DNA of 19,040 nucleotides from a virus (taxonomy: Duplodnaviria > Heunggongvirae > Uroviricota > Caudoviricetes), in IMG/VR virus record IMGVR_UViG_2526164604_000026, positions 1-19,040 of that record; one strand, 5' to 3'. Numbering within the stretch: position 1 is the stretch's first letter; the number at the start of each line of letters is the position of its first letter. Below, one piece after another: positions 9,001 through 12,000 of the stretch. Position numbers: made by a program.

Positions 9001-12000
9001 ATGAATTTTTCGAAACACAGAGCCGCAATGTAACCGACTGGATGCCGCTACCAGAACCGCCGCAGGAGGTGCGCCAATGATCTGGCCTGAAGCCTTTGCA
9101 ATTACAGGCGTTGCTATAGCTATTGATTTTTTAGTATATGTTATTTGTCGGTGGGGGTAAAAACGTTCGCCGGGATTCACACCAAAGGAGGGAATATGTC
9201 GGATGATATTTCACTGGCAATGGAAGGTGCGCTGGCTGTTATTGCTGTTGTGGGCGTTTACTGCCTGGTTGTGTTTTTGATGGATCGACTAGGGAACTGA
9301 ATTCATTACGATATGGGAATTCCCATATCGGGTAAAAACGGTTTGCGGTAAAGCGAGAGTTAAGTAGAATTGCTGCGGGTGCTTGAGGCTGTCTGCCTCG
9401 GGCATGCCACCGTAAGGCAGACAGAGAAAAGCCCCAGTTAACATTACGCGTCCTGCAAGACGCCTAACATTAATCTGAGGCCAATTTCATGCTAGACACA
9501 TGTAGGTTAGCCTCTTACGCGCCGAAAGGCAAGGAGAAGCAGGCTATGAAGCAGCAAAAGGCGATGTTAATCGCCCTGATCGTCATCTGTATCACCGTCA
9601 TAGTGACGGCACTGGTAACGAGGAAAGACCTCTGCGAGGTACGAATCCGAACCGGCCAGACGGAGGTCGCTGTCTTCACAGCTTACGAACCTGAGGAGTA
9701 AGAGACCCGGCGAGGGAGAAATCCCTCGCCACCGCTGATGTGTCAGGCATCCTCAACGCACCCGCACTTAACCCGCTTCGGCGGGTTTTGTTTTTTCTGG
9801 TCGTTCTGGTTTACAATCCATCCGTCAGCCTGAACAACTGGCACCTGCTGCGCCAGCAGAGAAAACAGATGGCGCACGATACCAAATTTTACAATTCGGA
9901 TAACTCTGCCGCCCCTGCCAGCAGGCACGGGCGGCGTTCTCATGCATTCAAATCTGACTGGTATCAGCACGACCCCTGCACCGAGAACAGGCTGAATGGC
10001 TGATTCAGTGTTACCGCAGGCGCGGATACGAGGTTAAGAAAGCCCTCAGTCTCGATTATCGTCACTGGATAATCTCCGTCAGGCTTCCTTACTCCGAACG
10101 CCCACCGCGTCCGTCCCGCACATTCCAGCAACGCATCTGGAGGTAACGTGCGGGTATTACTTCGACCTGTTCTGGTACCGGAACTCGGGCTGGTGATCGT
10201 TAAGCCGGGCCGTGAATCCATGCCGGTATTCCACAATACCCGGGTACTGGTGGAGCCGGAACCGAAAAGCATGCGAAATCTGCCGTCCGGGGTTGTACCT
10301 GCCGTTCACCAGCCGCTGGCGGAAGATAAATCACTACTGCCATTTTTCAGCGATGAGCGGGTGATCCGTGCTGCGGGTGGCGCTGGTGCACTGTCTGACT
10401 GGTTATTACGTCACGTGAAATCCTGCCAGTGGCTACACGGTGATTATCATCACAGCGAAACCGTCATTCACCGTTACGGTACCGGCGCGATGGTGTTGTG
10501 CTGGCACTGCGACAACCAGCTGCGGGAGCAGACATCTGATTCACTGGATCAACTTGCTCAACAGAATCTGGCCGCCTGGATGATTGACATCATCCGTCAC
10601 GCAATGAATGGCGCACAGGAGCGTGAATTATCTCTGGCTGAATTATCCTGGTGGGCGGTCCGCAATCAGGTGGCGGACGCGCTACCGGAAGCGGTATTAC
10701 GTCGTTCGCTGGGGTTGCGTGCGGAAAAAATCCGCTCCGTATACCGTGAAAGCGACATCATACCGGGAGAACAGACCGCCACCAGCATACTGAAGCAGCG
10801 CACAAAAAATATTGCGCTACCGTCTCACACCCACCAGCAACAGAACCCACCACAGGAAAAGACGGTGGTCAGCATTGCCGTTGATCCGGAGTCTCCGGAA
10901 TCCTTCAGGAAACGACCTAAACGTCGCCGCTGGGTAAATGAGAAATACACACGCTGGGTAAAGACACAGCCGTGTGCGTGTTGTGGTAAGCCAGCGGACG
11001 ATCCTCATCATCTGATTGGTCATGGTCAGGGTGGAATGGGAACAAAATCCCACGATATTTTCACGCTACCGCTGTGTCGGGAGCATCACAACGAGCTTCA
11101 TGCGGATCCGCTGGCGTTCGAAGAAAAGCATGGTTCCCAGGTTGATTTAATTTTTCGTTTTCTTGATCACGCCTTTGCGACTGGCGTGCTCGGGTAAAAG
11201 AGGTTACTGATGCGCATAGAGTTGGTTTTACCTTACCCGCCGACGGTGAACACCTACTGGCGACGTCGTGGCAGCACATATTTTGTATCAAAAGCCGGTG
11301 AGCGTTATCGCCGGGCTGTGGCGCTTATTGTTCGCCAGCAGCGGCTGAAATTAAGCCTGTCCGGAAGGCTGGCGATAAAGATTATTGCCGAGCCACCGGA
11401 TAAGCGCCGCCGTGACCTGGACAATATTCTGAAAGCGCCGCTGGATGCGCTGACGCATGCGGGGTTGCTAATGGACGATGAGCAGTTTGATGAAATCAAT
11501 ATCGTTCGTGCTCAGCCAGTATCTGGTGGACGTCTGGGGGTGAAGATTTACCCCATAATGCTTGAAGGGCAGGTCAAAAAATGAAACTGGAAGATTTACC
11601 GAAATACTACTCCCCAAAATCCCCCGGCCTGACTGATGCATCGGCCTCAACGTCGAAAGATACGCTGAGTATCACTGATGTGATGGCCGCGCAGGGCATG
11701 ACACAGAATTGGGCTGAGATGGGGTTTTCTGCGTTCCTTGGGAAAATGGGCATTAGTATGAATGACAGAGAGCGGGCAACAGAATTGCTGACAGAATATG
11801 CACTCAGTCGGTGTGATCGCGTGGCGGCGTTAAGAAAACTCCCGGCAGAAATAAAACCGGCAGTGATGCGTATTATGGCTTCGTATGCGTTTGAAGATTA
11901 TGCCCGTAGCGCGGCGAGCAAAAAACAGTGCCCCTGTTGTCACGGAAAAAAATTTATTGAAAGCGAGGTTTTTACAAACAAGATCCAGTATCCGGATGGT

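Follow-up and report, generated by a model that had tools for sequence, protein, structure and literature searches.

The window analysed here is a 19,040-nucleotide stretch of a tailed-phage genome (Caudoviricetes; IMG/VR record IMGVR_UViG_2526164604_000026, positions 1 to 19,040) and corresponds to a lambdoid prophage with Rac-type (RacR) immunity. In the interval between its DUF551 gene (window 8493–9080) and a hok locus lie two tiny open reading frames, here called ORF1 and ORF2, and a perfect 22-bp palindrome (Table 1). A 311-bp query spanning 9050–9360 is 100% identical to prophages in many genomes of Escherichia coli O157:H7, O145 and other Shiga toxin-producing E. coli (STEC). The PGAP gene order of an identical copy starts with integrase, excisionase, racR, ydaS/ydaT-like genes and replication genes, continues through small early genes (DUF1627, DUF4406, DUF4752 and Ea22-like) to the DUF551 gene, and ends with a 105-nt gene for a "hypothetical protein" (9196–9300), hokD, a 279-nt ORF, DUF968, rusA and the lysis genes. 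The ORF1/ORF2/palindrome interval belongs to the early operon on the plus strand, downstream of the replication genes and ahead of the late (lysis) region. An earlier sequence-only reading had described two hydrophobic ORFs with strong ribosome-binding sites, followed by a 22-bp palindrome, beside a bona fide hok locus. All of these elements are found in the sequence, the hok locus with its HOK_GEF domain, overlapping mok frame and hok/sok leader; the features are real, but the linkage drawn among them is wrong.

Table 1. Features of the ORF1–hok interval (window coordinates).
Feature	Position	Strand	Description
ORF1 Shine-Dalgarno	9064–9069	+	AGGAGG, 7 nt upstream of the ATG; lies in the final DUF551 codons
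ORF1	9077–9160	+	ATG 9077, TAA 9158–9160; 27 aa, MIWPEAFAITGVAIAIDFLVYVICRWG
Putative vestige of a VT1-Sakai-type gene start after ORF1	9161–9184	+	ACGTTCGCCGGGATTCA versus ATGTTCGCCCTGATTCA; by-eye comparison with L007 and L010
ORF2 Shine-Dalgarno	9185–9192	+	AAGGAGGG; from sequence
ORF2	9196–9300	+	34 aa, MSDDISLAMEGALAVIAVVGVYCLVVFLMDRLGN; PGAP coding sequence WP_001278450.1; contained in XECs145 of strain Sakai
Putative BstA-family KilA-N gene relic	9298–9330	-	Palindrome plus ~11–15 nt 3' of it; contains the ORF2 stop codon
Perfect 22-bp palindrome	9309–9330	.	CGATATGGGAATTCCCATATCG; 11+11 nt, 100% complementary, no spacer; begins 8 nt past the ORF2 stop
Truncated second ORF1 3' end and downstream sequence	9330–9348	+	GGGTAAAAACGGTTTGCGG; direct repeat with 9155–9173; left edge of the hok module
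Putative hok promoter	9343–9370	+	-35 TTGCGG 9343–9348, 16-nt spacer, -10 TAGAAT 9365–9370; read from sequence
hok mRNA leader with sok target	9377–9551	+	Rfam RF01794 hok/sok, 116.9 bits
mok	9489–9701	+	ORF
hok	9546–9701	+	Pfam HOK_GEF PF01848, 9.7e-24; HokD in PGAP

Short ORFs arise abundantly by chance (43 of at least 20 aa in 2.5 kb) and carry no weight alone; the case for ORF1 and ORF2 therefore rests on conservation and on published translation data. The start codon of ORF1 shares the sequence ATGA (9077–9080) with the TGA of the DUF551 gene, and the best 17-aa Kyte-Doolittle window of the peptide, 2.32, is consistent with a single transmembrane helix. A tblastn search returned matches to ORF1 in 92 phage records at about 59% identity; query coverage was at least 80% in 90 of these. 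The carriers include Stx phages (VT1-Sakai, BP-4795 and Stx2a_WGPS2), the virulent Vequintavirinae phage Av-05 and phage pPE4. In four of four phages inspected the homologue is unannotated and overlaps the stop codon of the preceding gene through ATGA, although that gene differs (DUF551, Ea22-like and others), and a GGAGG-then-ATGA layout also precedes homologues that stand behind unrelated genes. The five homologues that were translated are all 27 aa long and share the pattern M-x-W-P-E/D-A-F-(13 hydrophobic)-x-x-C/F-R-W-G-stop; a further variant is 25 aa long after an in-frame 6-nt deletion, and strain 7_26_9A has an ORF1 with a deletion of this kind. Nei-Gojobori analysis of five diverged copies gave proportions of synonymous and nonsynonymous differences (pS and pN) of 0.60 and 0.19 (omega 0.08–0.43), compared with pS/pN of 0.31/0.29 and 0.22/0.32 in the two other frames of the region. 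ORF1 thus shows what is expected of a conserved small phage gene, namely frame-specific purifying selection, a fixed length and a start context kept in diverged genomes.

ORF1 is not bound to hok: Stx phages carry it close to xis/int, at the distal end of the early-left region. It has no coding sequence in RefSeq or PGAP and is annotated by a few GenBank submitters, so the suspicion that the ORFs might be unannotated was correct for this one. In Shigella phage POCJ13 (L005 1528–1611) the conserved Trp3 codon has become TAG, leaving a pseudogene; the POCJ13 record annotates minus-strand ORFs across the region instead. Weighing against the gene, ORF1 at 27 aa falls under the 30-aa cutoff of the ribosome profiling (RIBOseq) study cited below, and its translation is a prediction. 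From this sequence comparison, ORF1 appears to be a real, conserved and translationally coupled micro-gene, mostly unannotated, and a widespread phage accessory gene. Its product would be an inner-membrane peptide; translation would depend on coupling to the preceding gene, whichever that is, and expression would come with the early operon of the phage.

The second frame had also been thought possibly unannotated, which does not hold: ORF2 is already RefSeq protein WP_001278450.1 and, with an arbitrary longer N-terminus, the novel gene XECs145 of O157:H7 Sakai (Hucker et al. 2017, PMC5597208). Ribosome profiling had been proposed as a check on the ORFs, and the published RIBOseq data cover the ORF2 interval. 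In lysogeny broth (LB) at 37 °C, XECs145 had 79.1 reads per kilobase per million (RPKM) in the transcriptome and 346.1 in the translatome, a ribosome coverage value (RCV) of 4.35 and a coverage of 0.99; the corresponding values were 121.3, 150.1, 1.14 and 0.84 in the brain heart infusion (BHI) control and 73.3, 1.1, 0.01 and 0.37 under BHI stress (PMC5597208). The product was predicted to be inner-membrane and the gene was classed as "real" (PMC5597208). The best 17-aa Kyte-Doolittle window of ORF2 is 2.95, again consistent with a single transmembrane helix, and the protein is present on about 1000 contigs of the protein collection.

Close homologues of ORF2 are confined to Escherichia, and a 51-aa, TTG-extended query gave only Escherichia proteins of at least 73% identity. 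Phages Tritos, Evi, mEp460 and HannyBb have a diverged 29-aa homologue, (M/V)LVLKCALAIAAVMAIYCLAVVLMDRLSD, immediately before hok, with its own AGGAGG or AGGAGA and a GTG or ATG start; by blastn, window 9224–9290 is 74.6% identical to Tritos. The sequence upstream of hok was surveyed in 108 viral contigs, an unbiased sample retrieved by way of the hok promoter and leader. About 57 carried a Tritos-type peptide gene and about 19 a window-type ORF2, and an intact ORF2-family gene precedes hok in roughly half of the sampled loci (about 40 with the Tritos-type homologue). In O55:H7 RM12579 and DEC5D (L003 and L004, 1647–1858), a 107-bp unit with ORF2 occurs twice in tandem; TTG is the start codon of the second copy, and PGAP lists both copies as WP_001278454.1.

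Several observations weigh against ORF2. About 16 of the 57 Tritos-type copies are truncated, and the selection signal is weak, with pS 0.44 and pN 0.23 in frame and 0.40 and 0.23 in frame +1. RIBOseq reads may multi-map, as the region occurs in one to five copies per genome, and the 162-nt XECs145 interval includes the 3' end of ORF1. A consensus scan of the plus strand found no promoter for lysogenic expression of ORF2. We nevertheless conclude that ORF2 is a genuine gene for a predicted 34-aa membrane peptide, habitually paired with hok and translated in lysogens. It may act as a small membrane protein that is expressed in lysogens and modulates a membrane protein or process.

That one or both ORFs are chance frames in mosaic intergenic DNA, with no functional product, is highly improbable. 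The abundance of short ORFs, the restriction of ORF2 homologues to Escherichia-type phages, where they are often truncated, and the ORF1 pseudogene in POCJ13 would fit such a reading, but the frame-specific selection and fixed length of ORF1 in 59%-identical homologues from very different phages, and for ORF2 the ribosome occupancy and the PGAP call, contradict it.

The sequence-only reading took the peptides for type I toxins, that is, Hok-like pore-forming or depolarising peptides silenced by an antisense RNA. In common with the type I toxins of E. coli (Hok/Gef, Ldr, TisB, Ibs, ShoB and DinQ), which are 20–50 aa long and often prophage-borne, ORF1 and ORF2 are small and have one hydrophobic helix, and one such toxin, hok itself, sits 250 nt away in the same prophage. 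There are also two minus-strand sigma-70-like matches, at 9220–9193 and 9161–9133; the minus-strand total of three promoter-like matches, against 1.4 expected from shuffles, is not significant. The terminator scan found no minus-strand terminator, no Rfam match with E ≤ 1 was found in 8950–9376, and the sole RNA-antitoxin signal is hok/sok; these scans for antisense transcription gave nothing significant, although a consensus scan is unable to exclude an unconventional small RNA. ORF1 is coupled through ATGA to an upstream operon gene. The ribosome-binding sites of both ORFs are strong, and no silent structured leader was detected, sequestration by leader structure not having been specifically searched for. 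An RCV of 4.35 in healthy LB cultures places ORF2 among the better-translated small ORFs and is the opposite of what a silenced toxin should show. Neither peptide matches a toxin or defence family in Pfam, NCBIfam, PADLOC or PHROGs (sub-threshold matches only) or has sequence similarity to the type I toxins, and the N-terminus of ORF2 is acidic, in contrast to their cationic ends. Of the hallmarks of a type I system, then, the size of a hydrophobic membrane peptide is present, whereas an antisense RNA antitoxin and repressed translation during growth were not found. ORF1 and ORF2 appear to lack type I toxin architecture, a judgement on architecture and not on toxicity itself, and the toxin reading is very unlikely.

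Small inner-membrane regulators of enterobacteria include MgtS, MgrB, AcrZ, PmrR, KdpF, CydX and SgrT. ORF1 and ORF2 resemble MgtS/MgrB/AcrZ-type proteins in size and in having a single transmembrane helix; ORF2 is, in addition, translated in ordinary growth, and ORF1 was missed by annotation. They differ in being phage-borne, in showing no sequence relationship and in having no known partner protein. By this analogy, we think that both may work in the manner of MgtS/MgrB-type small membrane proteins.

The position of ORF2 relative to hok bears on another explanation, in which the peptide is irrelevant and transcription or translation running into the hok promoter sets hok/sok in cis, through promoter occlusion or through a 5'-extended hok mRNA unable to form its fold-back structure. 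The putative hok promoter was not picked up by the consensus scan. The first position of the Rfam model puts the transcription start near 9377, where we also take it to be from the 5' end of R1 hok mRNA. In both diverged classes, the ORF2 or ORF2-like frame stops 10–45 nt before the hok -35, and frame-specific selection is weak, as this explanation would have it; likewise, 13–14 loci keep only the last six codons, fused to another ORF, with the same end point. In these remnants (L360, L357 and 12 similar viral loci), the Tritos-type ORF2 is cut to MDHLSD-stop and joined in frame to an unrelated upstream ORF, with its end kept at the same place before the hok -35. However, the peptide core ALA-x-x-AV-x-x-x-YCL-x-V-x-LMDRL is retained at 74.6% nucleotide identity with many third-position changes, and hok functions without ORF2 in the loci where ORF1 abuts hok and in plasmid R1. 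We consider an effect in cis a minor possibility beside a peptide-encoding ORF2.

The palindrome does not belong to the peptide genes. No palindrome of this kind appeared in 200 shuffles of the window, even with three mismatches allowed. The predicted fold of the single-stranded DNA is a 9-bp stem capped by an AATT loop (-8.6 kcal/mol). Downstream of it come GGGTAAAAAC (plus strand) and TAATGAATTC (minus strand), with a T-run in neither, and the terminator scan reports no site there; the suggestion that it is an intrinsic terminator was rejected on these grounds. It has no match to an Rfam family. Intrinsic terminators and stabiliser hairpins of the repetitive extragenic palindromic (REP) type are likewise GC-rich, stable stem-loops just after a stop codon, but the palindrome has no U-tract on either strand, is single-copy in the window and is identical across phyla, whereas REPs are species-specific.

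The neighbours of the palindrome point to its origin. To its right there is always the hok module, whereas the left neighbour varies among prophages (ORF2, the paa/adfO moron in PPompW phages, or other genes). In L122, L111, L175, L178 and L183 an intact KilA-N gene stands between ORF1 and hok, and the E. coli-type order is ORF1 (+), a bidirectional terminator, the KilA-N gene (-) with the exact palindrome, 350 nt, and hok (+). Window 9298–9333 matches the minus-strand KilA-N sequence of L122 (4434–4469) at 32 of 36 positions, and L179 and other hok loci keep longer relics (in L179, 19 of 27 nt beyond the palindrome). The palindrome was also considered as part of the hok module and rejected, as most loci in the hok survey do not have it; it is present in about 27 of the 108, roughly a quarter, and about 7 of these 27 are broken by a 1-nt deletion or changed to GGGGATTCCC or GACTTCCCACATCG.

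The intact parent gene (L122/L111) encodes 257 aa. Its product matches Pfam KilA-N (4.3e-27), phrog_6287, "BstA abortive infection system, replication inhibitor" (2.7e-89, residues 1–254), and, over the C-terminal domain, PADLOC BstA (3.2e-21, residues 119–238); by blastp it is 32% identical to the C-terminal domain of BstA-BTP1 (3e-16). These matches place the parent gene in the BstA abortive-infection family. In Proteus phage vB_BPM-V3 (L455 1501–2265), a BstA-like KilA-N gene 81% identical to that of E. coli lies immediately downstream of cI, just as bstA does in BTP1, and carries a 28-bp near-perfect version of the palindrome, TTCCGATATGGGAATTCCCATAACGGAA. Sequence and synteny thus indicate that the palindrome is probably the surviving core of a minus-strand BstA-family KilA-N gene, not kept in all hok loci and unrelated to either peptide gene. 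One point to set against this is the shortness of the left-flank similarity in the window, about 8 of 11 nt beyond the palindrome.

The joints on either side can be read directly. Window 9330–9789 is 94% identical over 460 nt to 1279–1739 of pPE4 (L009), an alignment that begins in the last codons of the pPE4 ORF1 and, in the window, at the last base of the palindrome. ORF1 abuts hok in this manner in about 25 loci. The direct repeat GGGTAAAAACG(G)TT(C/T)GC at 9155–9173 and 9330–9348 is present because a second ORF1 end is joined to hok. Immediately after the complete ORF1, 9161–9184 (ACGTTCGCCGGGATTCACACC) resembles ATGTTCGCCCTGATTCAACG, the start of the gene (MFALIQRG...) found after ORF1 in VT1-Sakai and Stx2a_WGPS2, except that the ATG has become ACG.

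We put the probability at about 0.7 that the locus is best explained by two genuine membrane micro-peptide genes and a palindrome that is a relic of a BstA-family gene. The interval would be a recombination patchwork in the early (nin-like) region of the prophage that brings together three unrelated items, ORF1, ORF2 and the palindrome relic. From left to right, it would consist of the complete ORF1, the vestige of a VT1-Sakai-type follower gene, the ORF2 module, about 33–37 nt of minus-strand KilA-N relic, joined on its left to ORF2 and on its right to the truncated second ORF1 end, and hok.

A different view of the orphan palindrome is that it functions in place, as an operator or decoy for KilA-N/BstA proteins or, at the RNA level, as a hairpin terminating or stabilising the ORF2 transcript; in the former case, hok or prophage replication would come under the influence of KilA-N/BstA proteins of co-resident prophages. 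The palindrome is centred about 58 nt before the putative start of hok transcription, the hairpin is present in the minimum-energy fold of the ORF2-to-hok RNA, BstA self-immunity is DNA-based (PMC8585504), and the same 22-mer is under very strong nucleotide constraint inside KilA-N genes, as described below. The exact 22-mer is, moreover, kept in hundreds of hok loci and stands alone in about 24 unrelated, non-KilA-N contexts in other phyla, a retention that could mean that orphan copies do something and that counts against an inert relic. On the other side, most related hok loci have no palindrome and about a quarter of the copies are broken, the lack of a T-run argues against a terminator, and the published BstA self-immunity element, aba, differs in sequence and position and is specific to its own BstA, with no palindrome in bstA of BTP1. 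Furthermore, an intact bstA-like gene is found in 137 complete E. coli genomes out of 5426, for the most part non-STEC strains, and the orphan region in 676, so that a co-resident partner protein is usually absent. We regard a functional orphan as unlikely; the copy at hok is probably inert, or only weakly functional.

Inside intact KilA-N genes the situation is different. The exact 22-mer occurs in 63 loci of species-representative genomes, against about 0.03 expected by chance, and in more than 120 viral contigs. The taxa comprise Nostocales, Oscillatoria, Saprospiraceae, Dehalococcoidia, Bacillota, Spirochaetia, Saccharibacteria, Rhizobiales, Azospirillum, Alcaligenaceae, Xenorhabdus, Rouxiella and others. 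Of the 63 genome loci, 39 have the 22-mer inside a gene with a KilA-N domain (PF04383), always at one and the same domain position.

A conserved peptide motif could by itself produce such cross-phylum matches, and we therefore compared codon usage. The KilA-N subfamily was sampled by degenerate peptide patterns, so that any codon choice could be recovered (L196–L355), and 29 representatives encoding D-M-G-I-P-I-S were used, with flanks on average 59% identical and gene GC contents of 33–60%. All 29 use GAT for Asp, CCC for Pro, ATA for Ile and TCG for Ser, against background frequencies in the same genes of 0.50, 0.19, 0.20 and 0.19, respectively, and the preceding codon ends in C in 28 of the 29 (background 0.26). 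The exact 22-mer is present in 19 of the 29, compared with 7e-5 expected.

The departures from the exact sequence are themselves symmetric. Variants with both arms changed include CGATACGGGAATTCCCGTATCG (DTGIPVS), CGATATCGGAATTCCGATATCG (DIGIPIS) and those with GGATATCGGAATTCCGATATCC and a GGTATACC core, sometimes at the cost of amino-acid changes. Across 48 distinct 30-mers, 94.9% of cells pair, compared with 26–48% in slid controls, and four pair positions are altered on both sides (17 cells), a number reached by 0 of 500 shuffles. Six Bacteroidota genes, all found by exact match, carry the same DNA in another reading frame (E-R-Y-G-N-S-H-I-A) at what BLASTP shows to be the same domain position, and in three of the six (L013, L050 and L054) the palindrome is extended to 32 bp; an unbiased sampling of viral contigs for this RYGNSHIA subfamily returned no relatives.

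The palindrome is absent from the distant phage KilA-N genes of LoVEphage, PaV-LD and Nodularia and Winogradskyella phages. LoVEphage keeps the near-identical motif ADMHIPIS without it, which means that the protein motif does not force the palindrome. The synonymous codons, the second frame and LoVEphage together led us to reject the peptide motif as sole cause. The palindrome in intact KilA-N genes is under strong nucleotide-level selection and is therefore, in those genes, a functional DNA or RNA element.

Our best guess is that this element is a symmetric binding site for a dimeric protein, with the KilA-N protein itself as a possible candidate. A double change of the central A-T to T-A slightly favours a symmetric protein that recognises duplex DNA over a simple hairpin. 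The iterons of the lambda origin are a precedent, being protein-binding inverted repeats inside gene O, which codes for the protein that binds them. The 22-mer is similarly a symmetric site conserved in the frame of a phage DNA-binding protein's own gene, where it constrains codons; it differs in being one site, not four, and in having no link to origin function, and binding by the KilA-N protein is hypothetical. The wider proposal that the 22-mer is the recognition site of widespread KilA-N proteins, including BstA-like ones, embedded in their own genes, with orphan copies as working decoys or operators, is distinctly unlikely. If it were true, a bstA-less prophage could use an orphan copy to escape co-resident KilA-N/BstA proteins, or to couple hok to them.

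Outside any KilA-N gene, the 22-mer occurs in about 24 genome loci and a dozen viral loci, sometimes beside terminators or in palindrome arrays. Noncoding arrays of differing perfect or near-perfect palindromes with the core GGGAATTCCC (for example GTGAAACGGGAATTCCCGTTTCAC and ATAAAAACGGGAATTCCCGTTTTTAT) adjoin the exact 22-mer; loci of such arrays are L026 2527–2705, L070 1931–1997, L077 5709–5734 and 6046–6067, L062 4444–4496 and L129 13856–13910. An operator array was considered for the GGGAATTCCC-core palindromes in L077 and L026, which precede KilA-N-like genes; proteins encoded next to them have no Pfam hit. In L085 (6840–6935), the 22-mer lies between direct repeats of about 30 nt (GCAACCAATGCGCGCA...AATT...), resembling a duplication around the palindrome, and the direct repeat at 9155–9173 and 9330–9348 of the window is comparable.

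The BstA protein of Salmonella phage BTP1 blocks the replication of competing phages (Owen et al. 2021, PMC8585504). In the same study, the prophage gains self-immunity from aba, a 63-bp DNA element that is specific to its own BstA protein; aba spans the start codon at the 5' end of bstA-BTP1 and is bounded by CCCGCC direct repeats. The parent gene of the palindrome is likewise prophage-borne, and aba is a precedent for a short, separately functioning DNA element within a bstA locus. The palindrome, however, is nearly identical across very different proteins. We considered it as an aba and rejected this identity: it lies at codons 58–65 of a canonical KilA-N domain, has no CCCGCC repeats, is common to proteins 35–55% identical and does not occur in bstA-BTP1, a gene whose product has no more than a KilA-N-like N-terminal domain. 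BstA function is known only for BstA-BTP1, -Ec and -Kp, and the aba of the E. coli and Klebsiella homologues was never mapped (PMC8585504), so that a role of the palindrome in immunity is possible. The text of Owen et al. contains neither "palindrom" nor "inverted repeat" (PMC8585504). Literature searches for the sequence, for KilA-N with a palindrome, and for BstA with KilA-N after 2021 gave nothing beyond Owen et al., and we found no published description of the conservation of the 22-mer in KilA-N genes.

Two further features lie downstream. The plus-strand ORF between hok and DUF968 (the PGAP coding sequence of 279 nt; window 9740–10003) is a small hypothetical gene that follows hok in the window-type and PPompW loci inspected; it has no Pfam match and only a sub-threshold PHROG match. 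At 13174–13340 (+), shortly upstream of a 645-aa ORF (13481–15418), there is a match to the STnc100 small RNA family (Rfam RF02076, 101.6 bits).

For the locus itself, the result is modest and mostly clarifying. ORF1 is worth adding to small-protein catalogues, being carried by Stx and other lambdoid phages, and the hok-linked ORF2 family suggests that hok modules of prophages consist of two genes more often than has been recognised. What merits follow-up is the deep conservation of the palindrome in KilA-N genes, where the frozen 22-mer spans Proteobacteria, Cyanobacteria, Bacteroidota, Bacillota, Spirochaetes and others. As a DNA-binding domain of phages, KilA-N is very common yet poorly understood, and for BstA, a defence protein based on this domain, the mechanism of DNA-based self-immunity is still unexplained; a conserved candidate site offers a concrete sequence for binding assays.

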